From: Amphiscolops sp. MND2022
Lineage: Eukaryota
Assembly (NCBI GenBank): GCA_964187785.1
Contig: OZ076409.1
Coordinates: 60,576,001-60,640,000 of the forward strand
DNA: 64,000 nt
Reading direction: 5' to 3'
How positions within the stretch are numbered: position 1 is the stretch's first letter; every line of letters starts with the position of its first letter. Below, piece after piece: positions 14,333 through 59,047 of this stretch. Made by a program: the position numbers and the translations under genes. The notes under the pieces were generated by a model. That model saw only the letters and a program-made list of their open reading frames with translations, had not been told where the DNA came from and made no database searches.

Positions 14333-14429
14333 TAACTAATTATCACTCGGTGTAATATGAGAAAAAGTGGAAAACTGTATTTACCATAATAATTCACTGT
14401 GATTGGTTATAAATGCAAGTCGCAAGATC

Positions 14430-33411: not shown

Positions 33412-33679
33412 TGTACTGATCTACATTAATAACCAATAGTATTTAGATGTTTATAGAATGTTCTAGAATGTACATTTATTTGTTATTGAATGATTGTAAA
33501 TCTCTACTCCTTCAGAGAGAGAAAACTAATAATCAGTATTCAGTTGACTTCCTTTTTGTTCTACTCCTAACACCTCGGAATAGTTGTAATAAAGTAAGCT
33601 AGCTAGCCTGTCTCTCAGCCGCTTTTAGTAGTTGCGTATAAGACCATAAAAACAATAACCAACCATTAAAAGCAGCACA
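33412..33679 (+). repeat. 5' LTR (268 bp)
   Basis: TGTACTGATC...AAGCAGCACA; no difference from 51593-51860 seen by eye; AATAAA at 33588-33593. Confidence 0.95.
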
Positions 33680-33682
33680 ATT

Positions 33683-33697
33683 TGGTGCGACTTGTAA
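33683..33697 (+). promoter_or_regulatory. Putative primer-binding site (primer tRNA not assigned)
   Basis: TGGTGCGACTTGT begins 3 nt after the LTR end. Confidence 0.7.
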
Positions 33698-33920
33698 AAT
33701 TTTTCTCTTGTCCTTTCTCCTGGATGATTTCTCTTCTCTCAACAATCATACAAATACCACTCTCCATATTTGAAATTCTCTGGAATTGCAGTAAAATCTT
33801 TCTAGAATTTCTTGAAAGTTTGGTCTGTGACTTTCTAAATTTCATTACCAAATACATCATCGTTCGAAACACAATTTCTCCACTACAACAATCAATTTTA
33901 ATATAACAAAATTTCTTCAA

Positions 33921-34252
33921 TACCGGTTTATCACGTTTTCTAACACGTTGACACGGTTCTTTTTCCTGTTCTTCTAGCCATACCGGTTTATCACGTTTTC
34001 TAATACGTTGAAACGGTTTCATTTCAGACTGATTTATCCATTGTGACACAGTTCTGTTTTTCTTCTTTTTCCAGACTGATTTATCCAAAGTGACACAGTT
34101 CTGTTCTCCATACTGATTTATCACAGCTAATCCGGAAGCTTGTTGAAACAGTTCCTTGATGTATGTCTGGTTTATCAAGGTTTTCTAACACCTTTGACAC
34201 AGCAACATTTGTCTGGTTTATCATGGTTTTCTAACACCTTTGACACAGCAAC
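33921..34252 (+). repeat. Degenerate tandem repeats in the retroelement 5' leader
   Basis: Paired units CCGGTTTATCACGTTTTCTAA.ACGTTGA, CTGATTTATCCA..GTGACACAGTTCTGTT and TGTCTGGTTTATCA.GGTTTTCTAACACCTTTGACACAGCAAC. Confidence 0.8.
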
Positions 34253-35495
34253 TTTCTTCAATCCTGCTATCTTGAACGTCAGGTGGACTCCTGGTGTAAT
34301 AGTTGACTGAGTGCATGTCCAACTCCGTTCACCTATAAGCACATACGTCTCAAGATCAACTTCGTGTTGGCAGAAAACCTGGATTTTCTACTTTTACGTT
34401 TCGGATCCCCTTTCTACAAAATTTCCTATAAAAAAATTTCAGAAATAGACTCTGAAAACAAAAAAAGGCAACCAAGACTAACTACCGAAAACAACCACGC
34501 ACTATTCCCTTTCTTTCCCTATTGTCGACAAACAATACAAATAAATTCACAAAACTTAAATAATACACATAACTCCAAAAAAATGTTTTCACCAATCAAC
34601 AAAAATAACAATAACAAATAAACTCAAACTTCCCTTAAGTACTTCTAATAATAATAATAATTTTAACATAATCCTACCAAACAATTATTTTAACAAAATA
34701 CAACATACAATTTTCACAACTCTTTTGCTTTAAAACTTAAAATAAGGCATGTAAATAAAACAAAGAAAGTAAAGTTAGTTTTCTACTTTCAGGCACCCAC
34801 AATTCCTATTCCCTTCCGTAAGACTTAGCCAATCAGATAGCCACACCAGCGTACTCTGATTCTAAGACTGACTAAAAACCTTAGTTAAGTGTAAACGTCT
34901 TTAAGGAGAATCGAGAGGACACCGAACTACGTTCGAATCTTCAAAATTCTCAAGAAGTAAAAGTAAAAGTAAAAGAAACAAAGATCAAATTCTGATCTTG
35001 ATCAGTATTGATCAGACTTTAGATGGTGGACGTTGATTGTTCAGAGTTCCACTCCTTTAGTCTTAAAACACACAACCCACTTAAAATTAAAACAATCTTA
35101 GTTTTTCTGGACGTGTCAGTAACCTTATGTTAGACACCTTAAAGAGATCCAGACTTAAAATAACATTTAGTTTCTGTTAGCAATCCTTTGAGGTTGAATA
35201 CAGATCCTATTGCAACCGCTTATTTCTTCTCTATCCCAAAATATTAACTTCTCAAATAACTTCAAATTACAATACAACTTTTATGAACCCAAACCAAGAA
35301 ATTTATCCTTTCAACTTTTACATTCCACCAATTAGCTCACTTCAAAACCCTACACCAAACGATTTTGAAAGATTAATTGAACGATATCAACGATATTTCT
35401 TCTATATCATAAATCAACAAAGAAATTACCCAAGAGCTCGAACTTAGAAAATCTTTATATAAAACATTCTAACGTTATAACCTTCACATTACAAC

Positions 35496-35609
35496 ATGTG
35501 GGAAAAGGTTACCACAGTAGTACTCATTACAACATACACGTTTTGTGTCTTATTTATAGTTTGTGTTCTTCTTGAAAAAATACTTACAGTGATAAGAGAT
35601 AAACTTTAA
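35496..35609 (+). CDS. Small putative single-pass membrane protein (37 aa) immediately upstream of gag
   Basis: MWEKVTTVVLITTYTFCVLFIVCVLLEKILTVIRDKL*; 22-residue uncharged stretch; stop codon ends 2 nt before the gag ATG. Confidence 0.45.
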   Translation: MWEKVTTVVLITTYTFCVLFIVCVLLEKILTVIRDKL

Positions 35610-35611
35610 AA

Positions 35612-38600
35612 ATGTCCTCAACGACAACCCCTCTACCTTTCCAAACTCCCACCATTAAAAATGCAAAAGTTGTAAAATTAGAACTAAACCCATTTCTACA
35701 AAGCATTCTTTCACATTATACACAACCACTCCCATTTGAAAATGAACCTCACACAATTGAAACAATCCCTCTTATTAGAGAACATTTGGACACATACCTT
35801 TTCTATATTAGATATAAAGTTTTAACAATCACCGAAGAATACCCAACTTTTCAAATATCCTTTCCTCAACAAAAATTTAACTCATCTCATATATACAGAA
35901 GAACAATAAACCCAATAAACCTTCAAGTTCCTATTAAACAAGTCTTTCATGCTTTTCTAAATAATGTAAAAGACCACAATTTAGCACACGAAATTCCAAA
36001 ATATAGTCCAAATGCACTCGACGATCTTCAAAGATACATAGACAATTTCGACGTAGAAACTATTGAAACATTGGTTAATCCTGAAGACAATCCTCATCAT
36101 TGGTTACAAACTGATATATTACAAATTCAAAATTTCATCTACCACTACTTCAAAGACCTAACATTAAATAACCAAACAATTCCTCAGATCAAAGTAATAT
36201 CTTTATTTCTTAGAAAATATTTCAGATTTAATTACCAATTATTATGGTCTCAACAAGATCAACCTGCTTTTACAGAATTCCCAGATCAATTTACATCAGA
36301 AGAATGTTTACCATTCATTATCAGCGAACAAAATGAACACCCTTATTTTCATAAACCACAATTAATTACAAAACAAACCTTAGATTACATAAGTTTCGAT
36401 CCTCTATTAATTACAGAAAATGATCTATTCCCAGATAATAAACCTTACCACTATCAACAAAATTCTCAAGATCAACAAAATTTACATTTTAACACTAACA
36501 ATTCTACTGAAGATGATAACACCGATCAAGAAAATACAACCCAACAACAAAATCAACCTGAAAACTATAACGATAATGAGTTTACTACCCAAGAATCTAC
36601 AATTTCAACACATAATCCATCACAAACAGGGACATCAACATCAGTACATACTTACTCCTTTAGAGTTCCAACTAGAGTTATAAATCAAGGACAAAATATA
36701 CATAGTCCTCAATCTCATTTAGATACATCTCCAAACCGTAATATAACTTTTAACCTTCCACATACAGATGACATAAACGATGAAACCCATGATACATTAC
36801 AATATGATACTATGACTACATCTAGTGCTCACAATACTTCTGTTAATGTTGCATCCCCAACAAGAACTACCTCTGATTCTACAAGATACATTACTCGACC
36901 TAGATATGATCCTCCATCAATTCCCTCCGCCTTTCGCTCAAACAGATCGACCACTTCTAGCAACAATTTTAATGATAATCCTCAAACTTCCAACCGATAT
37001 TACGATCCATTTAATTATAACTTTTATCCTCCATCAAACACAACTACCAATACGAATATAAGCCAAAACCACTCTCAAATTAATACAATTTCAACAACAC
37101 AAAATCCCTTCATACAATTATCAAATACCAATACGTCCCAGAATATACATTCTCAAAATCGAGGAACCTCGTGTACTTCCATTTCTTATTCTAATATTAC
37201 ACAGAATTCTCAAAGAAGACTTCATAATCCTCCACTCACACATATACCAACTGATCCTCTGTATCAAACGCATTCAAATCCAAATCTTAACCCTAATCCT
37301 AACCCATTACCATCAAATACAATCCAATATATACCTCCACCACTCACACAACAATTAGCTCCGCCACCCCAATATTTCCCAATGCCGCAAGATACCTTTA
37401 TAAACATGTCCGCTTCAATACCAGAACCTATGAAACCTTTTGATGGTTTGGACCATTCTTACACCCCTGAAGAATATCTACAACAAGTCGAAGCAAGATT
37501 AACCTTCGCCATAGGTGAAGAACCTCAAAATAATCCTATAAAATACAAATCTTGGCATAATAGACGCATGGCTTACATACAATGTTCATTAATAGGAACA
37601 GCTCTCGATTGGTACACTAACCTCCATATATCATATAAACAACAATGGAATTCCTTTGTACAACTATTTAAAAAACAATTCTCATCTCAAAAAACTGCTT
37701 ACTACGCTCAAGTAGAAGCTATGTCACTCATGAAAAAGGATAATGAAACAGTTCGCCACTTTGCCCATAGAGTACAACAATTAGTTAAAAAGGGATGGTG
37801 TAATGAAAATGCAGCTACCATAAATCTCAAAAATAACGAAATCTTTACAAAAGGGTTACCAAAGAAATTAAAAGATTTTGCCCATAAACGACAAGTTAAA
37901 CATGTATCAACATTACTTGAACCTTCAATACCATTTCATACACTTGTTAGACATGTCGATTCAGAAGATGTTGTTAATGAAAAAATCAGAACTAACGACT
38001 TAGCCTTAGAAATAAACAAAGTATCGCTTGAAGAAGATACTAACAAAAAAGAATTTGAATACGAAGATCAGATAATGGTTACTCAAACTGGAGACCCAAA
38101 TAACAAAAGCAAACCAGCGTATAGAAAATATTGTTCCTATTGTCATAAAAATAATCATAGTATTTCAAATTGTTATCAAAAACAACGTGATGACGAATAC
38201 CAGAAATACAATAACCAAAGATCACGAACTCCTCAACAATGCTTTGTACAATATTTCCGTAGTAAACCTAATAATCCTCAGGAAAATCGAAATGAAAATA
38301 CAAACTCTTATTCCTCAGATAATGATCGTAATAAATACAATCAAAACTACTATAATGATAGATACAAAAACAATGATAGATATCGTAGCAATAGTAGAGA
38401 ATATTCGCAAAACAACTATAGATCAAACTCTCGACAAAGATGTCATAATCGATCCCGAAGTCCGTATAGATCTCGATTTGATAATTATTATCAAAGAAGA
38501 ACTCCATCTAGATCTCCATATAGATCTCCATACAGAAATAACTCAAATTACAGATATAATTCTCGCTCAAGATACAGATCTCGTTCTCAATCACAAGGAA

Positions 38601-41600
38601 ACTCCTTTAAACGATATAATTACCCATATAGATCTCCATCAAGACCTAGAGATTTTAGATCAAGATCTAGAACACCCTCAAGAAACAGACAACAAAACAG
38701 AATAAATCAAGTAGACGTTAAAACACCAAAAGAAAATGATAGTACAAAATTTGAAATCCACACCTGTCAAATGACTGAAATAGCTAATACAATCACCCCT
38801 TATAGTTGGTTTTATCCACTATATATTCACGCCTCTGAAACAAATGACAACATATTACCTTCAAAATTAGAAATCTTATTCCTTTTAGATACTGGAGCTT
38901 CCATATCTGTTTTGAATTTACCAACATTTCATGTAATTTCCAAACAAAAAAACATCCATGTTCCAACTAACATCCAAAACAAAAGAGCCAAAACTCTTAC
39001 AGTTGCAAACCAAACTGAAGTACCAATAATACATTATATTTCGATGACTTGTTTCACTGAAGTAAATCACAAAACACGATCCTTCAATATCGATTGTGCC
39101 GTAGCAAATATCAAATACAACATTCCTGGAACACCCTTTTTCAAAAAGCACATCCAAAATATTGATTTTCAACAAAACATTATGACATACACAGAACAAC
39201 ATCCAAAGCTTTCAACAAAAACTACATTTTCTACATTTACAGAAAAAGATTATCCATATATTTCTTACATTTATACTATTAAATGTAAGGAACCAATTCA
39301 CTTTAAACCAAGGTCAGGAAAAACCATACATTTCCCAATTAAAAACTATTCAAATCTACATTTTGAACTCGAAGATAATACGAAGTTCTACCCAACAAAC
39401 CCATATACATATTTCTTACAAAAATTTAAAAATATCTTTCATTTCTTAGACATGATAGTCAATGAAAAAAGCAAAGACTCATGTGCAACTATAATTCAAA
39501 ACTTTACATCTTACCCAGCTACATTACCACAAGGAATTATTGGATATATAGAAATACCGATTACGCAAACAACTCCTCCTCACTACAGAGTTAACGATGT
39601 AAATTCACTCATTCACTCTGTAATACATGCATATCACCCTGATACGACAACCCCGATTAAACAAAATCCATATACAGATATGAACTTATGCACTAGGGTA
39701 ATACCACAATCCCTATTAGAAATAAACAAGATAGAACTTAACGACAAAACACTTCAACTTCCTACACCTTCTGTTACTGGAAACCTTCGACCCTCAGATA
39801 AAATTCGAAAAGATTTCCCTCCATTACCCTATTCTACAGAAAACCAACAATTCATGAAGAAATTCAATTTCGAATACTCAGATTTAACCGATACAGAATA
39901 TGTAAACCTCTGCAATATTCTAATTAACAACCAAAATTGTTACGCCAAACATAAAAACGACGTAGGAAAGATTTCCACTCCTTTTCGAATTAGAATAAAA
40001 GATAATTGTAAACTTCACACACAAAGACCTTCTAAAGTACCTATCCACTATAGAGATAGACTAAATAAACTTTTACTAGAACTCGAAAAATACAACATCA
40101 TAAAACAAATTGGTTCAACAACAGATGAAAAACATACTATTGGAACAACTTTTTTAAACCCTTTAATTATTATTCCAAAAGGAGACGCAATAAAAGTTGT
40201 TTTAGACGCAAGACATCTAAACTCAAACACTAACCAAGAACTTGAATCTTGGCCTATTGAACCTTTAGCTCTTCAATTAGCTAGAGCAAATAAAAAATAC
40301 AAATCAACTATTGATCTAATGTATGCATATGCTCATACACCATTAGATGAAGAAACAATTAAACTTACAGGATTTTCATCCGGTGACAAATTATACGCCT
40401 TTATCCGTGGATTTTACGGATTAAAAGGACTTCCAAACCTTTTCACAAAACAAATGTCAACTTTCTTTAGATCACTTATAGACAAACGTTCTGCGTTAGA
40501 TTATATAGATGATATTCTATTACTCGCAAATGAAAAACAAGAAATGTTTGAACTTATAAAAGAATTACATACAATAGCATCTCGAGAAAATCTCAAACTT
40601 GCACCTGAAAAATCGTTCTACATGCTACTCAAAGTAAAATTCCTTGGACATGAAATTGGTAACAACACAATTAAGCCAATTCCATCCAAAATTGAAGCTA
40701 TTAAAAGAATCCCATCACCAAAAGAAAAGAAAGATGTTATGCAATTTCTTGGCAGTGTTAACTTTTATTCAAAATTCATTGAAAAACTTCATATAAACCT
40801 TAAACCATTGTATACATTACTACATGATGATGTTAAATGTCAATGGACACCTGAATTAGAAAAACTATTTCAAAATGTTAAAAACGCAATGACAGCAGAC
40901 ACTGAATTAACAATACCCAACACCACGCATCCATTTTTTATAACAGTAGATGCTTCGTTAGTAGGTTTAGGCGCAGTCTTATTCCAAATGAACGAAGAAA
41001 ATAAGATGAAAGTAATCTCTTATAACTCCAGAATTCTCAATACACAAGAACAAAAACTTTCAACTTTAGACAGAACTTCTTGCAATAGTTTACGCATTAC
41101 AAATATATGAATTTTTGATCATTGGATCTCCTCATCCTATATATCTCTTCACAGATCACAAGCCTTTATTACATTGCTTCGCAAAGAAAGGAAATCTTAG
41201 TCCTAGATTCTATAGAGCACAAATGCAATTAACCAAATTCTCCAAATTAAAAATCATTCATACCCCTGGAAAAAATTTAACTGTAGCAGATATGCTTTCA
41301 AGAACCTTTACAAAAGAACAGCTACAAGTACACCAATTACGACACAAACAATTACCACCTCAAATAGATTTCTTTATCATGAAAGATAATCAACTCAAAC
41401 CAGTACATTATTTAGTAAAACATGAAGAAATAAAATATAATCAAAAAAATGATTGTCATCCTATCCTTGCTGATTACGGAGACGATCAATTCTCCATCCG
41501 TATAAATAACAAAGGAGAAGATATACATATAAAGCCTTCAGATTCCTTCTCTTTTCAATCTATTGTTCCATTCGAATCAAAATATAAAAGGCCTACAAAA

Positions 41601-43644
41601 AAACAAGCAAAATCTCTTTTACAACAATCGGCAATTCTTAATGATACTGACATTCTTAGTGATGAAGAGGAAATAACACCACCAAATAATATCCAACAAC
41701 AAAACTCGAACATAGTAAAAGAACATACCCTTGCTATACAATATCCTACCAAATCTGACTATTGTACACAACAAGTTCCATTTTTTGATCCGTCTTTTTT
41801 CAAATACAAAAAGTATTTTAATTACTTCTTCCTACCAGAAGATACACAAATTACTATTGAAACAATAAAAACTCAACAAAATCAAGATACTGTTTTACAA
41901 AAGGTTTACCAATGGATACTTAATAATGAAAGACCCTTACAAATAGACCCAACAATTGCAGCTAACTCTTTCCTATTAGTATATTACAAACTCTTCAACC
42001 GATTGTATATTAATCATGATACAAAAATTATTCACATAGATTATCCTAATCTTCACGATTCCAACCCGAATCAAAGAGACAAAATATGTTTACCATTTAA
42101 ACTTTTCCACACAGCTTTTAACAAACTCCATGCTCATGGACATTCAGGAATAAAAATATCCATCAAAGCTTTCAACCAATTTTACTTCATACCGTACCTA
42201 AATAAATGGATGTCAAAATTCATCCATGATTGCATTGAATGTAAACAAAATAAACATATTAACCAAAAATTACAAACTGCATCTATACAAACCTTCTCAG
42301 GAAATGCTTCATATTTTAATTACAGAATATCAATGGATACAAAAGGACCTATAAACCCACCATCAAATCAAAATTCATACATTCACGTTATAGTAGACGC
42401 TTTTAGTCACTTTGTAGTAACAGTACCCATAAAACAAAATAATGCTCAAAACGCTGTTAACTCATTACTACATCATTGGATAACAAAATTTGGACCTCCT
42501 GTATACCTAGTTACCGACCGTGGAACAGAATACATTAATTCAGAATTTGCAAATCTTTGTACTACAATGGGAATTAGACATTCACCAAGAACTCCTTATG
42601 CACCATGGACAAATGGTTTAGTTGAAAATCAAAACAGAAATCTTGGAACTCATCTTAGACTTTTCTTACACAACACTCCAGAAAATTGGTCAACTCAAGT
42701 CCATATGTATGCTTATGCACATAATTCACAACCACTTTCTGAATTAAACTTATCTCCATATGAAATAGTATTTCATACTATACCCAGAATTCCCATCAAC
42801 TTTGAACTCAATCTCCAAAGAGATACCTATAGAAATTGTACTTCTCAATATTGTCAAGAGCTACCACTTCATACACACTATGACATCAAATCTAAACCCT
42901 TTCTTTCATAAAATTTTATCTAAACCAATTCCACAATGGATCTTAGCTACTGAAACTGCCATGATACAGATATACCATACGGTATATGAAAACACAAAAA
43001 GAAAGATTAATTCCTATGCTTATTTTAACAAAACATATCACAATCCAAGACCCTTAGATATTGGTACATTTGTACTAAAAAGAAATTTTCTCCATGTTCA
43101 TTTTTCCGATAAATTAAAACCTCTCAGAATTGGCCCATTCAAAATTATTAACAAACTCTCCGATATAACATACGAAATTGTTAATCAAGATGGTTATACA
43201 TCGCACATACAAAGAAATCATTTAATTCCTTATTATCCAAAAGAACCAGTTATTTTCCCTTTCATACAACAATATAACCCTCATTTATTTAATGACTGTC
43301 ATTCAAATACAAATGATCAAATAATTAACTCGGATGAAGACAAATTTACAGACGAAGAACAATTTCCTTCCACAACATTTAATAAAGAAACGGATGTACC
43401 ATCCACGATTGACTTACAATCAGAACCATTTAACCAATATTCTTCATTTCCATATAAACAAAAAGAACAAATTCCTCAAAATACCTCCCTGGATAACCAA
43501 TCAGATATTCATGATTATGACAATTTTATTAACCCCCGAAGACACTCCTATAATAGATACAATTTCCGCCCACAACCAAGAAAAGACTACCGACTCTTCC
43601 TTGGTGAAAAGGATATAATTTCACTTTCTCAAAAATCCTGCTGA
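35612..43644 (+). CDS. gag-pol: Gag-Pol polyprotein (Gag, CCHC knuckle, RS-rich region, PR, RT, RNase H, IN), disrupted by two frameshifts
   Basis: Capsid-like PMKPFDG...EEYLQQVE; CSYCHKNNHSISNC; LLDTGAS; VVLDARHLN, IDLMYAY, FYGLKGLP, YIDD; VDAS...TDHKPL; HGHSG...CIEC; MDTKGP, TDRG, NGLVE; IGPFKI. Restoring 2 nt near 41073 gives LDRELLAIV; restoring 2 nt near 42885 joins the 42802-43644 frame. Confidence 0.93.
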
Positions 43645-43828
43645 AATACGGAATACAGAAAGAAATACACACAAAGAAAGTTTGAAAGAAAGAAAAAGTT
43701 TGAAGCTTAGAACGAAAATAAATGAAATTTATTTTACGAATGAGAATAAAAGAAAGAAATCCTAATTGATATAAAACTATAACTATTTTACAAGCTGAAA
43801 CTAACTATCGTAACACAACGATTTCAAA

Positions 43829-45271
43829 ATTGATAGACATAATCACTCACCATCATCAACTACAGATAACTCTTCTTCTAGTTCAACACATTCACTCCAA
43901 AGATTACCTGAATATACAGCATATTTAAACTCAGATACAGACATACTGGATTCCTCATCCTCAAATCCCAGTCCATCCGCTCCATATACTCCTGATAGAG
44001 TACCAACAACACCCACTAATACACCTATATCCCAAACTCAACCACAAATATTAACAACTCAATCACAACCTAGTTCACGAAATCTAACATTTTTAGAAAC
44101 AAATTCACCACTTTCTGACTCTAATGATGAAACACCTACAATACCAAATACACAAGATACTTCAGATATTTTGAATAGACCTCCTCTTCCACCGATTACT
44201 ACCACTCGTTCTATTCATATCCCTGATCCTAACTCAGTATTACAATACATAAATTCTTGTCCACACAAAGTACCAACTGCAACGAAAACAAAAAGAAAAA
44301 CTCCTTTACCAACATTACCACAAAATCTTGATTTACCATCATCAAGTAATATTCCAATAACATTTTTACCAGAACCTTCATTAAAATCACCAACGAAAAA
44401 ATCACAACAATACCCAACTCCTTCACCATTGGAACTAAGTTCCTTCACATTTTCTCAAATATATCCCAAGCTTGAATTACAACGTGTACATTCAACAACT
44501 ACCTCTTCATTAACAGACTTATATCATAAAGATAAAGACTCTGACTCAACTGCTAGTACTAGAGTACCAAGACATAATTATAACCTTCGATCTCAACAAC
44601 AAAAAAATTCTCAAGAATTACAATCCTTAACTAGCTCAAGTACAAATTCAAGACTACTTCGACAACACGCCCAACCCAGATTGGACACTTCTTCTCTTTC
44701 CTCATCTCAGCCCACTATACCATCTTCTCTATCACTACCATTTCAAATCACATCAGGATTTGAAACAGCCTCTCTTATTTCTGAAGAGCCAGCAACTATA
44801 TCAGATAGCGCAGCTAATTTTTCACGAGTTTACTCACCTAGTTCAATAGCCTCAAACTCCTCTATACAATTACCTGAATATTTTTTAGAAGACTTCTCAA
44901 GACCTCCATCGCCAAATCCTCACGAATATCCTATTCGTGTTAACTCAAAAATTGTTCGTACGCTTAACGAAGATCCTCGATACATGGTATTACCTGCAAG
45001 ATTTATAAACAATAGTTCACTCTCAACTCAAAGAAAACAAAGGGAACTACGAAGATTACAAGAACAACAACTCACATTAAAATTTGAAGTAGAAGTCACA
45101 TTCAACTCGTTAGGACCTCATCCATTCTCTCTTTCAACAAGAGTAGCACATAAAACAACCCCATCACCATTCATTGTTACCTCCATTTCCTACCTTCGTG
45201 ACGCCGATTTACCTGAGATTAGAACAGGACATATAAACTTTTTTAATCCCCTACTCAGGACTCAATTATAG
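43829..45271 (+). CDS. Accessory ORF2: Pro/Ser/Thr-rich, largely low-complexity protein (~480 aa)
   Basis: The frame of track ORF 44171-45271 is open back to 43814. ATT at 43829 after CAAA looks like a mutated or non-canonical start. Contains PSAP, YPKL and HNYNLRS. Confidence 0.7.
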   Translation: MDRHNHSPSSTTDNSSSSSTHSLQRLPEYTAYLNSDTDILDSSSSNPSPSAPYTPDRVPTTPTNTPISQTQPQILTTQSQPSSRNLTFLETNSPLSDSNDETPTIPNTQDTSDILNRPPLPPITTTRSIHIPDPNSVLQYINSCPHKVPTATKTKRKTPLPTLPQNLDLPSSSNIPITFLPEPSLKSPTKKSQQYPTPSPLELSSFTFSQIYPKLELQRVHSTTTSSLTDLYHKDKDSDSTASTRVPRHNYNLRSQQQKNSQELQSLTSSSTNSRLLRQHAQPRLDTSSLSSSQPTIPSSLSLPFQITSGFETASLISEEPATISDSAANFSRVYSPSSIASNSSIQLPEYFLEDFSRPPSPNPHEYPIRVNSKIVRTLNEDPRYMVLPARFINNSSLSTQRKQRELRRLQEQQLTLKFEVEVTFNSLGPHPFSLSTRVAHKTTPSPFIVTSISYLRDADLPEIRTGHINFFNPLLRTQL

Positions 45272-45286
45272 ATCAATATTTTAACC

Positions 45287-47866
45287 ATGAACGAAATCAC
45301 CTTTACCTTTCATTTAATATATATATAATACAAGTTGTTAAATACAGGTATATAATAAATATAGTTCACTCTTTAGTTCATCCTTCAACTGTTCCCAAAG
45401 TTGACATCATCAATTCCGAAAATCATATTTCAGACCAAGATCCTAACATTTTAAACTTAATGGTATCTCATTATGATTGTGCAAAACAAAACAACCTAAG
45501 ACAATTCAGTTTATTAAACGTAGAACCGTGTAAACAAGCACCCTCAGATATACAACACACAAAAACCCAAGCAACAATTTACGTTAGAGCAAAAGCCAAA
45601 AGAATAAAAGCCTTTAAATGTGAAGCATATATAAAGACTGAGAAAGTCTGATGTTCACAAACATTCACATCTAGTAGACGATATGATCGTTTACAATGGG
45701 GACAAAACACATTAGAACTTCCAAAAATATTGGACCCTATTGAATGCAAAAATATGATCAGACATTTAAACGCGACTGATAGCGAAGAATTAAACAACTA
45801 CAATATACAAAGCTCTTTCTCATTGTTCGATGATAGTAATTATCAAAACACAATTGAACGAATTCAGACACCATTTAGAGTAAAAAAGTTAAATACATGG
45901 CATATTGGAACCTTCGTATTTGACGAAAATTATCCTGATTGGATAGTTAATGTTACACAAAATACATACTCTAGATGTCGATCAGACCGCGAACATTTAA
46001 TCACCCGACAAAGTTGGAAACTTAGAATTGTTAACACCGCAATAGATTATGACGATAAAAACAATCAAGTAATACATGACGGACACATATTACCATGTTA
46101 TCATTCAGACGGATTTTGTAAACCAACGACCAAAACTCCATATACATTGACATGGTTTGATGAAAAATTTTGCCTCATATTTAAACTTCAAGAATTCATT
46201 GGTAGAATGACACGAATCAAAGATATATATTGGATAGAAACCGATACCTTTATTGAAACTTCAAACATCACACAAAAACTTCAAACCGAAGGAATACAAG
46301 GAACAAAATACCCTAATATAAAAACACCAAAATCAAAAGTAAGCAATCCAAGCCTTTCCCGATTTGAAATATACCCAATTGCACAAACTTTCTCTGGAAA
46401 ACCTGAACCATTATTTTCAACACAATATGATGACATCTTTGTTACATACTTAGATGGTTTTGATATGAACACAGGATTACCAAAACCACACTCAATAATT
46501 GACCAAACAATTAGTGGAAATATAAAATATGATGATTCAAACAAAAGGTATATAATCCCTGCATTGAATATATCAAACAATTTCGCCACTTTAGACTATG
46601 ATGCCCACATTATTACAAAAATTGATTTCACAATAAATCATGTATTTAAATCCATGACAGTACAAGAATTAAACACTCTACATACAATATGTGAACTAGA
46701 AAGAACTCAACTGTTAACAATACTAGCAATGTCAGTTAAAAATCCCCAATTAGCCGGTTTTCTTTTAACTGGAAATCGTAGTAACTTTCTCTACGTTGAA
46801 GGATGTACAGCATGGCTGTATGATTGCCCTCATTTTATATCACCACTATACAAGGCAGATAAATGCTTTGATAGAATTCCTATACACTACAGAGAAACGA
46901 TAATGTATGTTGACCCAATAGCAAGACAAACTTTTAACTACGCAACACCAATTGAATGTGGAAATAACCCACAAAATATAATAGAATTAGATCCAGATTC
47001 TAACGACGGAGATTTTTATGTGTTAACACCAGAACCACTCAAACGAGAAGCACCACAAATGTTTAAACCTACCCAAATTAAAACAACAATCACTCCTAAT
47101 ACATTTACCGCCCAAGATGCCGGTATATACTCAAATTGCAGAATTAGATCAATTCTGGAATAGAGTATTATTTGCTAAACATTCAGAGACAACTCTTCGA
47201 TTACTTGGAAAATCATTAAGCTATGATTTCATTTCAATGCATAACGAAAAACACTCATACTCCCAACATAATCCCTACAATCATTTAAGGATTGGAGTAC
47301 ATGACCACTTGTTAAATCTTTTACCACTTTTTAACCCTGACTGGTTCAGTCAAGCATTCATTAAATTCTTTGGATATCCACGTTATGTTTTAACCCAATG
47401 TGAAATTTATTTTTCAACATTCCTTTTCATTAGAGAAGTTTTAACATTTTTACTCAAATTCTACAGAACAATTAGCATAAAATATAATCTCCAAAGCAAT
47501 ATTTCCATTTTGAGTTCAATAGCCCATGGATTTTTTAATATAGTTACATCGGAAATGGTAACCGATTTAAATAATACAGGAAAACGAAAACGGATATATA
47601 CTAAACACAAAATTACAACAAGTGAAAATGATAATATCCTATTGCCGGAAAAAGAATTAAACAATAAACGAAGACACTCTGATACTGACTCCCCTTATTT
47701 ACCTCCTAAAAATTCCAGTAAGAATTCAACATTTCAATCACCGCAGAAGACACACCCAACTAATGTAAACGATATTAATTCTCAGGACTATGACCCAATT
47801 ATGTCAAATATAATAGCTGTACCGGAAAGTCCTGCTAAAGTCTTTATAAAATTCAATCCCTCCTAA
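45287..47866 (+). pseudogene. env: Env-like class III fusion glycoprotein (chuvirus G / herpes gB-like), disrupted
   Basis: Hydrophobic N-terminus from ATG 45287 with a frameshift in the (TA)n run near 45320. HYDC...FSLLNVEPC...FKC; TGA at 45649; ICELERTQL...LYDC...KCFDRIPI...YVDP...IEC. A +1 frameshift near 47136 restores GIYSNAELDQF. C-terminal hydrophobic segments and a polar tail follow. Confidence 0.85.
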
Positions 47867-48264
47867 CTGAAAAGCAATAACGTAAAAAACAAATTAACCT
47901 CAAGAAAAGTTCACAAAATTATCAACCAAATTCTTCTCAGTTTCAACTTTCATTCACATCCAAATTCTCACTCGGACCGGTCTCTCCTTTTCAACTCAAC
48001 TCAACTCAACTCTCAACCAGAAGACATCAACTGGATTTTCAGTCCATCTAAACGACCGAAATCACAGAAGTTTCTATTCCTGGAATAGATGCCACTGTGA
48101 TTGTTGATGTGTTCAACCCATCATTGACCCAGTATTCCCATATTGTAAGTACAATTTAAACTTTAATTTTAACAAACAATTTAATGGATAGAAAAGACAT
48201 AACAAAAATTACCCAAATGTTATAATTATTATTTTAGCTCTACAAAAACACGCAAGTTTAAATA

Positions 48265-49557
48265 ATGGAATCCTTGCCCGAAATTGATGTAGTTAATTCT
48301 AATCCCTCTGAATTGCTTGCAACCCCTTTAAATATAACTATTCAACAAAATGTTAACGAAGATAATAACTCCCCCTCCAACTCTCAAGATCCTATAGAAA
48401 ATATCCCTATTGAACAAGTAGATCATGTCAACACAAGATCTCAAAAAAGAAAGTACCCAGATATAACTGCAGATAAACCTTTTATGGAATCTGGCGCTTG
48501 CCCTCCTTTCATAAAACCAATTAAACAAGATGAAGATAGAGATTGTGAATTAGTTCCTATTCTCTCGTCAAAACAATTCACATTTCAATCTCAGTTAACT
48601 TCGTTATACATGATCCCAACGAAATACAAATTCATCATCAGAGAATTTAAAAATGATTATCATACATCAATTGCTTCAAAACTGATTACCCCATATGATT
48701 GGTGGTTGAACAATAAAGTGAAAATTTTCTCACTTCAATACAACTTCCTCAGACCATCTCCATATGATCTCCGAACAGAAGAAAATGATGCAAATTTTTT
48801 GCCATATCAAATCAAAAAGGCCCACCATATGACTTATCAAAAGTTCCTTCAATATAAAGAGCCCGATAATTATATATTCTTCAACTCAAAATATACATCG
48901 CCATCCACTTTCAACTCAGAATATTTAATAGATCATATCAAAACAAAAGGAAAACTTAGAAATTATGACCCACTGAAACAAAGTTTTCTCTTCCTTCCAA
49001 ATGATAACCCAAAAAGACCAATCATTGTTCCACAAGAATACCTCATTCTAAACGACGATTCGTTACTACAAGAAGATATACCTCAACATATATCTGATCC
49101 TCTTCCTCCACTTCAACAAATAGCCTCTCAACCATTGGGAGACTGTGAAAAGTCTTATTTTCACGCAATGATCAAAAAGGGAAATTCAAACAATGAATTA
49201 ATTTTCATTATTTCCCACTTGCTTTCACTTCTTACAAATGGAAATCACAAAGAATATAAAAAGGCAAAACAAGAATCGCCTAAGAAAACCAAAAATGATA
49301 TTCCTCAACCACAAAGCTTTCGCCCAACAGATGAATTACAGAAATATACAGAAATTCTGAATATCATAAAACCGTATCATCATCCAAACCGAGATATTCT
49401 TATAACAATCGCTGAAATCGTAAATACCCTTGAACAAGCTCGAAGCATAATACAAAATATCGTATTTGATACGACAAGAATTAGCCAATCAGCTTTGTGC
49501 ATTCGCACATCTTTAGATGAATTCAACTACACTATTGAAAAAATGCATCGATCTTAA
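48265..49557 (+). CDS. Accessory ORF4, 430 aa, unknown function
   Basis: Intact ATG-to-TAA ORF inside the element with the same A/C-rich codon usage as gag-pol; basic patch TRSQKRK; helical-looking C-terminus. Confidence 0.75.
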   Translation: MESLPEIDVVNSNPSELLATPLNITIQQNVNEDNNSPSNSQDPIENIPIEQVDHVNTRSQKRKYPDITADKPFMESGACPPFIKPIKQDEDRDCELVPILSSKQFTFQSQLTSLYMIPTKYKFIIREFKNDYHTSIASKLITPYDWWLNNKVKIFSLQYNFLRPSPYDLRTEENDANFLPYQIKKAHHMTYQKFLQYKEPDNYIFFNSKYTSPSTFNSEYLIDHIKTKGKLRNYDPLKQSFLFLPNDNPKRPIIVPQEYLILNDDSLLQEDIPQHISDPLPPLQQIASQPLGDCEKSYFHAMIKKGNSNNELIFIISHLLSLLTNGNHKEYKKAKQESPKKTKNDIPQPQSFRPTDELQKYTEILNIIKPYHHPNRDILITIAEIVNTLEQARSIIQNIVFDTTRISQSALCIRTSLDEFNYTIEKMHRS

Positions 49558-50078
49558 CTGGTAATTATGGGATAATAGCTTTAAAGTTATTAACACTTAT
49601 CACTTAATCTTTTAACAACCTGTCAAAAATAATTGAATCTACACGCATATGCCTGCTATGCATGAATTTAATACTTACTTGATGTTAAAATACATTTTTA
49701 AAATGAAATAACATAAAAATTTCAATCACGACATAAAAATTTTCAACGAAATTCTTCAATTGCTCCTCCTTTTAATGGACCGATTTCACCAAAAAAGTAC
49801 TTATATGAAAGATATTTAAATACCCTTCAAAAGATTTCCAAAATACAACAACTTAATACTTAAAATTAAAAAGTTATAACATCACAAAATTCAATAAAAA
49901 AATGTCAACTACGAAATTCTATTTTCAAAGGAACTTTATTGTAAACAAACTAATCTATTTTAGGAAAACATCGTCACAACTGCTTTTTCCGCATTTCTTA
50001 CTTCTCTCAGGTCACCCATTCAGGAAGAATTCCGAAGTATCCTCTACAGCTTTCAACGAAATTTTCTCATTCTTCAAT

Positions 50079-50555
50079 ATGACAACTATCCACTCTGCCG
50101 ACATTGACTGCCCGATAGCTCCTTTCCTTTCAATCTCTTCAGCTCGATTGCGATCCTTGATCCTGAAAAAGCATTTAACGACATTAAATGCGCAGCTTCG
50201 AACAGAAAAAAAGGCTGACCCACATCTCACAAGGATGATATTGCTTAATATGTTCCAAATATTCCAAATAACAAGAATAAATTTCGACCAATATCTCCAT
50301 ATTCATAAACATCCTGACACTTATTCAACTCAAAAGGATGCCACTACACAAACGGAACATACTACAATCAAACCCAAGCGTTTACTACGAACCCTATCCA
50401 ATAGAATGCGTTCCAAAATGGAAAAACAACGTCTAAGTTCATATTGGCCCTCAGATGACAATGATGACACTGACGAAGACCTTCAAAAAGATCCCCCAGA
50501 AGCACTTTTAGACGATAACTATCCACATAAAACATATACTTACGTTTCCTTCTAA
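50079..50555 (+). CDS. Accessory ORF5, ~158 aa from the second ATG (frame open from 49902), unknown function
   Basis: Strong splice-acceptor-like TTTCTTACTTCTCTCAG at 50010 precedes ATG 50079; contains DATTQTE, a basic patch and an acidic tail. Confidence 0.6.
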   Translation: MTTIHSADIDCPIAPFLSISSARLRSLILKKHLTTLNAQLRTEKKADPHLTRMILLNMFQIFQITRINFDQYLHIHKHPDTYSTQKDATTQTEHTTIKPKRLLRTLSNRMRSKMEKQRLSSYWPSDDNDDTDEDLQKDPPEALLDDNYPHKTYTYVSF

Positions 50556-51577
50556 CATCAACAGACGCCACCAACAGCACCCGTCAACTCTCATCTTCGA
50601 ATTCCACATCTTCTACGAGCAACAGATCAGCACCCATCTTCATTTCATCGCCGCCCAACAGTTGCCCACCTTCATTCATCTGCTGACCCTTCTTCTTCCA
50701 TCTTCCCATCGTCCATCATCACCCACATGCTCAGCCGAAGATGATCGATAATTAATAATAAAGAAAACTCAAAGAAAAAACACTGTGCATGATAACATTT
50801 CGAAAAGTTTCAAACTCATCTAATATTTAAAGAATTCAAACTTTTACCGAAATTATTCATTATGTAGTTACTATTTCAAATTTCATCCCCACCCATATTA
50901 TTGCCCAAAAATCTTTTATTCATATCCATACCGATATTTATTTGCTTTATTTTTAAAGAATAATTAGTAATAATTATTATTTTTCGGTGCTATCCTATCC
51001 AAAAAATTCACAAATATTATCAACAAATCTTTTCAAATTTCAACAAAACCAACTCAAAATCAGATCAAGCACATTGTTCAGATCAAATTTGAATAATGAC
51101 AGACACAAATTCTCAAAGTTTTCAACATTTGTTACATAACAAACCCGCCAAAGTTAATCACAACCTGAAATTTTTTCAAACGTATTCCACGTTCAAAAAT
51201 TTTTCTTTCTCAACAATATTATTTCCTTGACTCTTTGACCTTTAACTCGTATGATGTTTGCTCACGTTTGTTCAATGCGAAGTTCATTCAAAACTTCAAC
51301 AGAAGCATAAAATTGAGCATCTACCAGTTCAAAAAACAAGCCGACGAAAGCATAGTGAAAAAGAACACTTTGACGCTTTTTGAACTGTAGTCGCACCTAC
51401 GAGGTGTCAATCAAAATTTTGACAATTCGAGGTACACCAATGAGTCGAACTACACCACTTTTAACGAGACTTATGCCAATCATACATCAAATGAAAAATG
51501 TTAACTAGCTGAAACGCTAAGAACATTTAAACAAAAAATTTTTCTTCATTTCATGATGCTACTTTAGATTTTTATAT

Positions 51578-51592
51578 AAAAACCGGGATGGA
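51578..51592 (+). promoter_or_regulatory. Polypurine tract-like sequence
   Basis: AAAAACCGGGATGGA immediately before the 3' LTR TG. Confidence 0.6.
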
Positions 51593-51860
51593 TGTACTGA
51601 TCTACATTAATAACCAATAGTATTTAGATGTTTATAGAATGTTCTAGAATGTACATTTATTTGTTATTGAATGATTGTAAATCTCTACTCCTTCAGAGAG
51701 AGAAAACTAATAATCAGTATTCAGTTGACTTCCTTTTTGTTCTACTCCTAACACCTCGGAATAGTTGTAATAAAGTAAGCTAGCTAGCCTGTCTCTCAGC
51801 CGCTTTTAGTAGTTGCGTATAAGACCATAAAAACAATAACCAACCATTAAAAGCAGCACA
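51593..51860 (+). repeat. 3' LTR (268 bp)
   Basis: Matches 33412-33679. Confidence 0.95.
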
Positions 51861-52660: not shown

Positions 52661-52839
52661 GGCAACGGTCGCTTTTTTAAAATGGGACGAATGGCCGCTT
52701 GTGACGAACTGCCGCTTGGGACGAAGTGCCGCTTGGGACGAAGTGCCGCTTGGGACGAAGTGCCGCTTGGGACGAATTGTCGCTTTTTGAAATTTGGGAC
52801 GAATTGTCGCTCGGGACGAGTCGTCGCTGAATGATTGCC
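52661..52839. repeat. Short element with a 17-bp minisatellite (TTGGGACGAAGTGCCGC)n
   Basis: About three perfect and several degenerate units, bounded by GGCAA...TTGCC. Confidence 0.8.
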
Positions 52840-53849: not shown

Positions 53850-56800
53850 ATGTGGCGTTGGTTACCATGTGCCAATAGGAAGGACAAGTTCGGGAAGGAC
53901 TTCGTGATGTTGGCGGGCCTTGTTTTGCAAGGCAGCGAGGAGTCGATCATCACGACTAAGATCCTCAAAGGAATGTCGGAGAGCTCCATGATCACCCAAT
54001 GGACCGATGACCCCGCCGATATCAATACCATCACTATCGGCAAGGGCATGCGGGAAATGGAGCTGTGGGAAAACCACGCAGTGCCGAGATTCGGATTGTA
54101 TGAGTCATCGCGATGAGTCACCGATATACTTTATGGCAAAAAGCAAAATCAACTGTTCAAACTGGGATACATGTTTTATTCTTTTGACTGATATTTTTAG
54201 TGTAGTTTTTGACGTTCTTAATTTCGAGTCTTCCAAAACAGTCGACGTTTGCCGTTCAACTATTATGATAGGCAGTATTAAAACAGACAGCTGGAAAAAT
54301 TCAATTTCACATCCAAGGGACAAGATGGTTTTCAAATAAGAGAATTTGATGATACTCTTAACAGAAATCGATTTGTAACGAGAGCCGTATCGATTGATGA
54401 AATTTCATGACTGTGCATTGAGATTTTTTGGCCACCTGGTAGGCTATAAACGTTACCCGGCAACAATTTACAGACTTAAACATAGCACGCACTATTATGA
54501 TTTGCGTTTTTATGGGGTCACCGAATGGTACCTGCATTCAAAGTAATGACTCATCTCGCCATCCAGTGCGGCCAAGCCACGCGCGCCTCCTAAGCAGGTG
54601 CACGGTATGATATTCTGTGTGGATGGCACTATCCCCTTTCGGGGGGAGGAGCGGGCCCTGTTGAAAACTATGCTGGACAAAGTCCTCCCCAAGTATGCAC
54701 CCTTCATGGTGCTTATCAACAAGCCATATGGCCATGGACCAAAGTTAGATTTGCTTTCGACCAGTTCTGATTCCGGATTGGTCAACTAAAACTCACTGAC
54801 CGTACTCTGACTCAAAATTTCCTTGTATGATCCTAATATGATCAGCCTTCAATCATGCATTTATCATGCTTTTATCACCTTGAAATCATAAATATGTATG
54901 ACTGACTATTCTATGATCAGCCTACGATCAGTCTGTTTTTGTCCAAGATGCATTGTCCAAAGATACTCAACTTAAGCCCTTTTCAGCGTATTTTAGATGA
55001 GTTTTTAGTCCGAAGCGGTGATTTCTCTAGATCTCATTCAAGGTCGTGTATAGTATAGTTCATCTCTTGTATAGTTCATGGGTTTCTACTAGGTAATTGC
55101 AAAAATTGCTACAAATTGCTAGGACCCGCAAAAATTGCTACACAAAGATTTCGGGAATTTGACAACGTAAACATTTCTCAATTTTGTAAGTTTCATTTTC
55201 CCGCTTGTCAACCATTCAGACCAACATCCGCTTCGAGGACACAGATTTGGCAGGTACTTTGACTTTGAATCACAAAGTTGTCATCCGTGGCCATTTTTAG
55301 TCGGCGCTTTATCCTTTTAAGGAAAAATGCCCGACTATAGCAGTGACTGTTTTTAGTCGGCGCGTTTTCCTTTTAAGGAAAAATGCCCGACTATAGCAGT
55401 GACCTTTTTTTTCTTCAGACTACAATCCTCACACTGATCGGTCCACTTTTCTTACAATTCTTACAATCTTAAAATCTTACAATTCTTACTTCGCAAATTT
55501 AAATAAAATACTTTAAAAGCTTGCGAAGTAGTATTTTTACATCATCTAAGAAACTCAAAGGGAGTATTTTCGGCTCTGTGAGACTTTTTTTCGAAAAAAA
55601 TTTTTTCCCAAAGGGTCCGCCCTTCAATTTTTTTGGAGTTTTCCGACAGAACGGATGTTGAAAAATCCCAAAGGATCCCGAAAAAGGATTTTTTTTCCGA
55701 TAGAAAAACCCTTTTCAGTTTTTTTCGGCATTGTGAGACTTTTTTCAAAAATTTTGTTTCACCAAAAGTGCCCTTCAATTTTTTTTGATGATTTGCCAGA
55801 GAATGGATGAAAAATCTCAAAGTGTCCCCTCTGGTGCGCCAATTCGGTTCAACTTTTGGGTTTTTCCGGTACCGTAGAAGAGAATACTCTGACCATTTTA
55901 AATCCTTTTGCTGTTTTTGAGCCTTAGATATGGCGCCGACTTGGGCCGTTCCCGGCTTATTTTTCTTGTTCAGACTACAATCCTCACACTGATCGGTCCA
56001 CTTTTTAGAAACAATCCTGAAACCACCTAAGGCGCCCAGTCCGACAAAGGGGCCAAGGCAAACTTAGTGCAAAGGGTCCCCCTTTCAATTTTTACTTTTT
56101 CAAGGTAACCTACAAAACCGCCCGAGACTAAAGGGTCCGTCCCCCCTTTTGATTTTTTTCGGCACTGTGCGACTTTTTTTCTAAAATCCTATATATAATA
56201 GAGACACTTTTCTTTTGTCTCGGCAGCTTTGTTACGTAATAGCCGAGAGCCGATCAACATTATCACAGCATATTGCGTAACAATTTGTATGCCAACTGAA
56301 AGATATTTTTGAAAAATGGCATGACAATCAAATTCGATCTTTTTGAAAACTGACTTTGAGAAAAAAAGATCAAATGACTTTGGAAGCCAATTGATTGACA
56401 TGGCTGCTAACATCGAATCTAAAGAAATACCAGTGAAATGGTCGATAAAGGATCTTCGGAAGATCTTCGAGATCAAATATCAACCAAGAACCTTCGGAAG
56501 ATCCTCGAGATCAAAGATCATTCAAGAATCTTCGAAAAACCTTCGAGATCAAAATTCATTCAAAGATCATCGGAAGATCTTCGAGATCAAAGGTCATTCA
56601 AGGAACTCCCGACGTTCTTCATGATCGAAGATCAATGAAGGATCTTGAAGATTTTTGAGGTGAAAGATAATTTAAAGATTTCCGAAAACTCTTCAACCTC
56701 AAATATCGTTCGAGGATATTTAGATAATCGAGATCGAAGACCATTCAATGACCTTCTGAAGATCTTTGAAGGATCTTCTGAAGATCTTCGAGATCGAAGG

Positions 56801-59047
56801 TCATTCAAGAATCTTCGAAAAATCTTCAGATCAATTTTCATTCAAAGATAATCGGAAGATCTTCCAGATCAATTTTCATTCAAAGATAGTCGGAAGATCT
56901 TCGAGATCAAAGGTCATTCAAGGAACTCCCGACGTTCTTCATGATCGAAGATGATTCAAGGATCTTGGGAAGTTTTTTGAGGTAAAAGATAGTTCAAAGA
57001 TTTTCGAAAACTTTTCGAAATCAAATATCAACCAAGACCTTCGGAAGATATTCGAGATCAAAGAGCATTCAAGGACCTTCTGAAGGTCTTTGACATTAAA
57101 GAATATTTGAAGATTTTCGAAAGCCTTTGAAGTTAAAGATCTTCCAAAGATTTTCGGAAGATTTTCGAGATCAAACAACATTCGAGGAGCTTTAGAAAAT
57201 CAAGATCAAAGATCATTCAAGGACCTTCACAAGATGTTCGAGATCAAATAATTTTCAAGGATTTAGAGATCAATCAAGGACCATCGGAAGATCTTCCGTG
57301 TCTTAGATCTTTGAAGGATCTTCGAGATCAAATATCAATATCAAGAACCTTCGGAAGACCTTCGAGAACAAAGATCATTCAAGAATCTTCGGAAGATCTT
57401 TGATATCAAAGAACATTTGAAGATCTTCGGAAGCTTTTGAAGTCAAAGATCTTCCAAAGATTTTCGAGATCAAACAACATTCGAGGAGCTTTAGAAAATC
57501 AAGATCGAAGATCATTCAAGGACCTTCACAAGATGTTCGAGATCGAATATTTTTCAAGGATTTAAAGATCAATCAAGGACCATCGGAAGGTCTTCCGTGT
57601 CTTAGATCTTTCAAGGATCTTCGGAAGAACTTCGAGATCAAATATCAATCAAGAACCTTCGGAAGATCTTCGAGATCAAAGATCATTCAAAAATCTTCGG
57701 AAGATCTTCCATATCACAGATCAGTCACGGATCTGCGGAAGATCTTCGAGATGAAAGTCCATTCAAGGATCTTTGCAAGATCGTTGAGATCAAAGATTAT
57801 TCAAGGGTCTTCGGAAGTTCTTCGATATCAAATATCATCTAAGGATCTTTTTGTAACAGTTTAACGCAAAACACAAGATGTTACTTCAGAAGAGCAATTT
57901 TGCTGTCCTTCGGACATAGGGGTTTGCTAGTTTTTAGTCGGCGCATTTTAGTAGAAAATGTGCCCGACTATTACAGTGGGTAGTTTTTTTAGACACGAAA
58001 GGTCCACTTTTTTGTTCATTTGTTCAACAACCTCAAACTTCAACAACTTCAAACCTCAACAACTCCAACCTCAGAAGCGCGTCCAAAACGAAAAGAAAAA
58101 ACAAAACAGACGTCCACAACCTCGAAAACACACCTTAGCCCCACTTTTTTCAGCACTTTTTTTTGAAGTTTTTTGGATTGCACCAGAGGGTCCCCCCTTC
58201 ATTTGTTTCGATATTTTGCAACACAATGGATGTCAAAAAATCGCAAAGGGTCCTCCCTTTTACATTTTTCGGCACTGTGACACTGTTCAAAAATATCATT
58301 AAAAAGATTTTGGGGAAATTTTTTCATGTCTCCAAAGGGTCCCCCTTCAATTTTTTTCAAATTTTTTGCTACCAGCTGGAGTTTCACAAAGCCCGAAGGG
58401 TCCCCCTATTAAATTTTGAGCCTTAGATATGGCGCCGACTTTGGCCGTTCTCGGCTTGTTTAATGTCCCAAAGGGTCCCTCCTTTGAGTTTTTTGTTATT
58501 TTGCAACAGAATGCATGCTTATAAATCAAAAAGGGTCCCCTTTTACATTTTCCGGCACTGTGCGACATTTTCCGAAAGAAAAATTTTCGAAAATTTCAAG
58601 TTTTTTTCCAAAAAAAAATGTTTTGCGCTTTTTGAGCCTTAGATATAGCACCGACTTTAGACGTTCTCGTCTTGTTTATCAAGCAGTTTGAAAAAGCGCT
58701 TCGCACTTGATTGACAGCTAAGTTCAGACTCACACATCGTTTCGAGATACATTTTGATAGTTGGATCATTTATTTGGTTTTTAATTTGACCAAAAAGTGT
58801 ACGGTTTCTTGCGGGTCACATAGAAATCGCTAATGTATCTATCAGTGTAAGATTTTATTTAACTCGATGACGTAATTTTAGAGACTTGGCGGACTTGGTG
58901 GAGGATCTGGGAATGAATGACATCTTCGACCGGTTCTGGCACGGAAAGGTCATCTGTTGCGACACAGGTGAAGGGTTCCGCAAGAGTCTCAAGGACTTCT
59001 CGGGAATGATCAAGGATTACCGGGAGCCATTGTTCTCGTTCCATTAG
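53850..59047 (+). CDS. Divergent Arf/Arl-like small GTPase-fold protein, 3 exons, 196 aa
   Basis: Exons 53850-54097, 54567-54743 and 58882-59047 are GT-AG, phase-2 compatible and total 591 nt. GMIFCVD, FMVLINK, DLVEDLG and DRFWHGKVICCDTGEGF align by eye with Arf GLIFVVD, LLVFANK, EITDKLG and RNWYIQATCATSGDGL. The start codon is uncertain. Confidence 0.75.
55294..55960 (+). repeat. Helentron-like interspersed repeat copy (duplicated 5' end) in Arf-like gene intron 2
   Basis: AGTCGGCGC at 55299 ... GCGCCGACT at 55933; hairpin GCCG-TTCC-CGGC. Confidence 0.75.
56445..57850. repeat. Satellite built on the palindrome GAAGATCTTC (unit about 38 bp, with higher-order duplications)
   Basis: Repeated TTCGGAAGATCTTCGAGATCAAAGATCATTCAAGGA-type units; blocks ~57100-57320 and ~57410-57620 are near-duplicates. 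Confidence 0.9.
57931..58677 (+). repeat. Helentron-like interspersed repeat with two successive 3' ends
   Basis: AGTCGGCGC at 57936; 3' ends at 58432-58460 (GCCG-TTCT-CGGC) and 58648-58677 (GACG-TTCT-CGTC). Confidence 0.75.

Follow-up and report, generated by a model that had tools for sequence, protein, structure and literature searches.

A Ty3/gypsy element of Amphiscolops sp. MND2022 with a gB-type envelope gene, four further open reading frames and a likely CUG start

To what kind of element does a broken envelope gene in an animal genome belong, and was the gene newly captured? The question is raised by a stretch of 64,000 nucleotides from Amphiscolops sp. MND2022 (contig OZ076409.1, positions 60,576,001 to 60,640,000, forward strand; this whole stretch is the window, and all coordinates refer to it), where env, a gene for an envelope glycoprotein (Env), occupies positions 45287–47866. 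An original prediction, made from the letters alone, had placed it in a Gypsy backbone and proposed an independent capture. We find that env lies inside an 18,449-bp Ty3/gypsy long terminal repeat (LTR) element spanning 33412–51860. The window copy is a recently inserted, already broken member of an abundant 18-kb Ty3/gypsy element with five open reading frames (ORFs), and the gene order gag-pol, ORF-X, env, ORF-A, ORF-B is common to four divergent families of the source genome. We are confident of this five-ORF layout with one gene, ORF-X, that is likely to be started at CUG. In the window the parts of the element are as follows.

33412..33679, plus strand: 5' LTR, 268 bp, TG...CA, with no differences from the 3' LTR
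33683..33691, plus strand: TGG motif resembling a primer-binding site (PBS), 3 nt past the 5' LTR; the same 9-nt motif is found in three divergent families
35612..43644, plus strand: gag-pol, in three pieces in the window copy and a single frame of 2,400–2,700 codons in other copies
43946..45271, plus strand: ORF-X, 441 codons counted from a conserved CTG (context AnnCTGG)
45287..47866, plus strand: env, likely encoding a gB/Monjiviricetes-type, class III glycoprotein; broken near 45317, at 45649–45651 and near 47136
48265..49557, plus strand: ORF-A, 430 amino acids
50079..50555, plus strand: ORF-B, about 158 amino acids from a conserved ATG; the stop-to-stop frame runs from 49857
51593..51860, plus strand: 3' LTR, 268 bp, TG...CA, with a short purine-rich tract directly 5' of it

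The argument for a CUG start comes from the coding sequence of ORF-X. The protein has 410–447 residues across the families, in a stop-to-stop frame of 418–490 codons, and this frame is free of Met in all five representatives. In 120 database homologues, which total 41,059 residues, internal Met occurs 18 times, a count that may be biased since these sequences are gene-caller products. The window ORF-X has one in-frame ATG, which is not present in the other copies of its family that were examined. ATG is also depleted out of frame, to 0.12–0.47 of the codon-shuffle expectation in five of five sequences (P = 0.008, <0.001, 0.10, 0.036 and <0.001), compared with ratios of 0.68–1.68 for control ORFs (n = 17) taken from these elements. 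Conservation of the protein starts at Leu-Asp. The codon for this Leu is CTG in all 34 loci located by pattern and in a 35th located by eye, and it always has an A at position -3 and a G at position +4 (AnnCTGG). Among the other Leu codons of ORF-X, CTG accounts for 18 of 1,499 (1.2%), and AnnCTGG turns up in frame a single time in 9,297 codons elsewhere. These copies do not count as independent cases, but at least four lineages differ at a synonymous divergence (dS) above 1.3 or more. Entry into ORF-X by readthrough or frameshifting from pol was considered and rejected, because the frame offset varies among the families and 100–250 nt containing stops lie between the two.

The ratio of nonsynonymous to synonymous substitution (dN/dS) is 0.11–0.16 for ORF-X, with 0.02–0.08 for its C-terminal domain and 0.30 in one saturated pair, and by this measure ORF-X is under purifying selection. 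Comparable values were obtained for env (0.09–0.10), ORF-A (0.09–0.11, at 32–41% identity across families) and ORF-B (0.08), which can be aligned only between close subfamilies, although an ORF occupies its position in all families. These low ratios identify all four as genes. It might be objected that ORF-X, ORF-A and ORF-B are filler, either non-coding or selfish, with frames held open by base composition. The element is indeed G-poor and A/C-rich, ORF-X is about 40% Ser/Thr/Pro, and none of the three gave a Pfam match above cut-off, nor did sequence searches of the PDB with ORF-X and ORF-A give any match. We nevertheless regard this explanation as extremely improbable, given dN/dS of 0.02–0.16 in ten comparisons within and between subfamilies, frames that stay open at matching positions in four families and a confident model for the C-terminal domain of ORF-X (predicted local distance difference test, pLDDT, 80). 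Two more specific ideas were set aside: the Pfam and PDB searches lend no support to ORF-A as a chuvirus nucleoprotein, and direct comparison shows ORF-X and ORF-A to be unrelated.

How would the two neighbouring genes be expressed? We think it probable, judging from the codon-level patterns, that ORF-X is CUG-started and that ribosomes get to env on the same subgenomic RNA through leaky scanning, within a five-ORF gB-type gypsy element. Either the start of this RNA or a splice junction in it would lie between pol and the CTG. A few ribosomes would start weakly at the CUG and produce a small amount of ORF-X protein, while most would scan past it to the env AUG and produce Env. The ATGs that remain between the CTG and env open upstream ORFs of 1–17 codons, and reinitiation after these few would add to leaky scanning in the production of Env. 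Env displayed on budded particles would carry the element from cell to cell, as happens with the errantiviruses of Drosophila.

Two other arrangements have to be weighed against this one. A CUG-started ORF-X could be followed by termination and reinitiation at env instead of leaky scanning, and the spacing of the genes is in places suggestive of this, with 1, 2 and 4 nt between the ORF-X stop and the env AUG in three lineages (L054, L024 and L073, respectively) and 15 nt in the window. However, the env AUG is 59 nt inside ORF-X in two families and 29 nt beyond it in one, and reinitiation has no need for a depletion of ATG in all frames over 1.2–1.3 kb; we consider it unlikely. The alternative is that the AUG of ORF-X is supplied by an exon lying upstream and env is expressed from a spliced mRNA of its own, the CTG being kept for another nucleotide-level reason. 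A spliced env mRNA is the usual retroviral solution and is how env is expressed in Drosophila gypsy, and candidate pyrimidine-rich AG acceptors, which are family-specific, are present 43–236 nt 5' of the CTG in each family. To this arrangement we give a small chance. Protein conservation begins at the CTG and at no acceptor, the CTG and its flanking A (-3) and G (+4) are retained in families that differ at dS above 1.3, and a spliced AUG leaves the avoidance of internal and out-of-frame ATG unexplained.

What might the product of ORF-X do? ORF-X protein is 36–41% Ser/Thr/Pro and consists of an N-terminal part rich in these residues and a conserved α/β C-terminal domain of about 120 amino acids, modelled as two helices and a five-stranded sheet. 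No fold match to this domain was obtained in BFVD, the PDB or a wide VIA search, from which neither a new fold nor a difference from matrix proteins follows. No matrix domain is known in the Gag of gypsy elements. The N-terminal part of ORF-X carries PSAP, [IL]YPxL and RHxYNLR motifs. [IL]YPxL is present in all four families and in seven of eight sequences, where shuffling predicts 2–3% per sequence, and PSAP is present in three of the four families. Late-domain-like motifs also occur in the tail of Env: YPxL, P[TS]AP or PPxY is found in 16 of 27 homologues, compared with 3.4 after shuffling (maximum 9; alignment A7), the sequences being related and the counts accordingly not independent. In the source-genome families the motif of the Env tail is PPxY. 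Motifs of these types recruit the ESCRT machinery of endosomal sorting in enveloped viruses (PMC6874086; PMC8402826). ORF-X would on this basis act as a matrix-like budding adaptor, recruiting ESCRT through PSAP and YPxL jointly with the PPxY of the Env tail. The motifs are short, and we offer a matrix-like adaptor co-translated with Env as a tentative candidate role.

The env gene of the window runs from an ATG at 45287 to a stop that ends at 47866 and reads as three frames. Alignment to sister copies places exactly three breaks in it: the frame shifts near 45317 and again near 47136, and a stop interrupts it in frame at 45649–45651. This bears out the three lesions that had been repaired in the original prediction to give a protein of some 860 residues. 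An uninterrupted frame (863 or 870 codons; 856–858 amino acids from Met) is present in 11 of 19 sister loci that were fetched, and these open copies are 92.7–98.4% identical in DNA to that of the window. The natural sister protein contains 16 Cys, nine N-glycosylation sequons and all of the motifs noted earlier in the repaired one (YDC, SLLNVEPC, CELER, IPI, VDP, IEC and GIYS). The membrane features that had been described were recovered in part. In a hydropathy scan with a 19-residue window and a threshold of 1.2, only one C-terminal segment passes, at about residues 700–730; the N-terminus is weakly hydrophobic and falls below the threshold, so that a signal peptide is only plausible.

The sister Env matches the Pfam family Monjiviricetes_fusion (PF24664) with an E value of 1e-25 and 90 bits, compared with a curated cut-off of 27. 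The structural model of Env is of low confidence (pLDDT 34, from a shallow alignment), and the top matches in both fold searches were class III fusogens only; sequence searches of the PDB with Env gave no match. Env is therefore likely to be a class III fusion glycoprotein of gB/chuvirus type (gB, glycoprotein B), as first thought. An Env of F type, as in baculovirus F, was discounted, since there was no F-family Pfam match at E ≤ 0.1 among 29 Env members and no R-x-K/R-R furin site in the natural sister protein.

The Gypsy backbone also stands. In addition to the identical LTRs, gag-pol contains Retrotrans_gag, a CCHC knuckle, protease, reverse transcriptase (RT; RVT_1), RNase H (RT_RNaseH and RT_RNaseH_2), integrase (rve), Integrase_H2C2 and an SH3/GPY region (SH3_Tf2-1), and its best match in the PDB is Ty3-G Gag-Pol (2e-51). 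This order of domains is shared with Bel/Pao elements, and we therefore used the Pao peptidase family A17 (PF05380) as an internal control. It has 150 matches in the source genome and none at E ≤ 5 in an intact gag-pol of the element's clade. Bel/Pao elements are metazoan, and their abundance here agrees with an animal host. The element RT is 23–26% identical to Bel/Pao RTs of the source genome, and a tree separates them with 100/100 support; two of four Bel/Pao loci that were tried yielded an RT, both from the source genome. On these comparisons the element is Ty3/gypsy and a Bel/Pao placement, which would have overturned the earlier assignment, is rejected. Gag begins with an N-terminal domain of about 290 amino acids (35612–36480 in the window; about 40% identical across families, no Pfam match), followed by a long low-complexity region and a capsid-like domain. 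The 5' leader (33680–35611) is 1.9 kb long, has a low density of ATG and contains tandem duplications of 46 and 60 bp at 33920–34255. No priming tRNA was found for the PBS-like motif.

Was the glycoprotein gene a recent acquisition? Published work describes HSV/gB-type Env (HSV, herpes simplex virus) in Ty3/gypsy elements across metazoans, where it is as common as F-type Env, and presents the combination as widespread and ancient and the glycoprotein as a homologue of the one, of Chuviridae-like type, that mosquito BEL/Pao elements carry (Chary & Hayashi, eLife 2026; PMC13524379). The element in the window is very probably of this published kind, and neither the novelty of the combination nor the independent capture proposed at first is supported. 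The comparison of glycoprotein and RT trees suggested at that stage was made with six elements, two of which are distant gypsy elements (L085 and L091). Pairs with RT identities of 96, 77–78, 73–78 and 45–49% have Env identities of 90, 66–67, 58–60 and 28–36%, respectively, and the two trees are congruent, with long branches for the two distant elements. Since Env divergence tracks RT divergence, the capture is old and shared, and Env was most likely inherited along with this pol lineage. That this Gypsy lineage recently and independently captured a chuvirus-G/gB fusogen might be argued from the finding of Env relatives above 48% identity only in the source-genome families and one protein cluster (P0044), and from the name of the best-matching Pfam family, which refers to negative-strand RNA viruses. 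Against it, besides the agreement of the trees and the published age of the combination, distant Env homologues (22–36% identity) include the same two gypsy elements, and two scans of viral contigs found no relative. A recent capture is very unlikely and, in our judgement, already largely refuted.

Env relatives were found at nine metagenome loci, two of which carry a gypsy pol (L085 and L091). The ORFs 5' of env in the distant relatives are unrelated to ORF-X (best E 0.09–0.14); of six that were tested, four are depleted in ATG and two are not. L091 (5812–9733), where Env is 22–29% identical and gypsy pol lies upstream, has two ORFs between pol and env. The first has 295 codons, no Met other than that at the start and no out-of-frame ATG against 8.3 expected; the second has 1,032 codons, no Met and 19 out-of-frame ATG against 41 expected. 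Depletion is also seen in the ORFs adjoining env in L087 (947–1894; 2 against 11.7) and L092 (527–1120; 1 against 4.4) and is not seen in L088 (3–590) and L085 (6774–7124). No pol was seen on L087, L092 or L088. ORFs follow env in L085, L087, L089 and L091. That of L091 has 617 codons and is mildly ATG-depleted too (ratio 0.64), while L085 is a 13-kb gypsy element in which a gB-type env is followed by two ORFs with coiled-coil ends (9651–12092). Cluster P0044 (20 members) is 61–65% identical in Env to all four families and has no close match in the source genome, so that the clade occurs in one or more genomes or assemblies besides this one. One might go further and see here a clade of 'complex' errantiviruses, 18-kb five-gene elements with an envelope cassette based on CUG and leaky scanning, a matrix-like budding protein of new fold and late domains in the Env tail, all missed by annotation that relies on AUG and on size; this we put forward as a possibility, and a doubtful one.

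The element is abundant in its host. A search of the source genome (1.07 Gb) with env produced 9,848 candidates, from which 85 copies with 96–100% identity were scored, and three further Env families are represented by 50 scored copies each, mostly open. These families repeat the order of the five genes and are 18.1–18.8 kb in length where measured. The target duplication is 4 bp, matching at three of four positions in the window copy and perfect in eight of eight sister insertions (two scored by eye). The window copy has identical LTRs and yet two breaks in pol, three in env and about 2% divergence from its nearest sisters, and is likely to stem from a defective RNA that was mobilised in trans, or else to reflect assembly errors.

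Elsewhere in the window, host methyltransferase exons lie at 7347–9561 on the plus strand, with Pfam matches to CMAS/methyltransferase only. By its motif the product resembles a sterol C24-methyltransferase, genes for which are uncommon in animals. Degenerate LTR-retrotransposon fragments (zinc knuckle/protease, integrase and RNase H-like pieces) are found at 1–1166 and about 14000–19000 on the minus strand, an 80-bp palindrome with a perfect junction at 10345–10424, and tandem arrays of 17 and 38 bp at 52666–52828 and 56384–57887, respectively.

The budding and cell entry of gB-type errantiviruses have been stated to be unknown (PMC13524379), and a conserved accessory gene together with late-domain-like motifs provides concrete candidates. 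A long, strongly conserved gene without an AUG escapes standard annotation. Near-identical intact copies number in the hundreds over several families, which makes the translation model directly testable in the host.

The closest known systems are the HSV/gB-type errantiviruses, with which the element shares a Ty3/gypsy pol, the order gag-pol-env, a gB/Chuviridae-like Env, LTRs with a PBS and many near-identical copies (PMC13524379). It differs from them in its length of 18.1–18.8 kb, in the ORF-bearing gap of 1.3–1.7 kb that separates pol from env, and in the two ORFs that follow env. The published survey was filtered for a pol-env gap of ≤1,000 nt, a region of ≤10 kb and an LTR spacing of ≤14 kb, and elements of this size and gap fall outside such filters. 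The diversity of envelope-carrying retroelements is thus probably undercounted. The main text of that paper makes no mention of CUG or other non-AUG starts, accessory ORFs, splicing, matrix or late domains, and the PBS string of the element is absent from its element table. Acoels are not mentioned in the survey either, a point to which we attach no weight. Our search of the literature, which for the most part did not extend to subscription papers, found no earlier report of a CUG-started or an accessory ORF in a gypsy element.

Other systems resemble single features. The Anakin elements of mosquitoes carry the same broad glycoprotein family 3' of pol in an LTR element, but on a Bel/Pao backbone and, in the text available, with no CUG-started or downstream accessory ORFs described (Dezordi et al., 2020; PMC7642597). 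In rice tungro bacilliform virus a first ORF with a non-AUG start and ORFs free of AUG let ribosomes scan on; this is, however, a plant pararetrovirus, in which AUU is used on the pregenomic RNA 5' of the capsid-pol ORF and there is no envelope gene (PMC5902531). The HIV-1 (human immunodeficiency virus 1) vpu-env and SIV (simian immunodeficiency virus) rev-env mRNAs are likewise subgenomic and dicistronic, with Env translated from the downstream ORF, but have AUG starts, short upstream ORFs, a class I Env and a retroviral backbone (PMC5902531). The LTR elements of bdelloid rotifers are invertebrate gypsy-like elements with extra ORFs after pol; the accessible text on them describes a single ORF3, which is an F-type env, a GDSL or a DEDDy gene, instead of env and three more ORFs, and does not mention CUG, non-AUG or leaky starts (Rodriguez et al., 2017; PMC5408684). 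Set beside these systems, an Env of gB/chuvirus type in a gypsy element is already known, whereas the five-ORF layout around env, with its likely CUG-started ORF-X, looks new.
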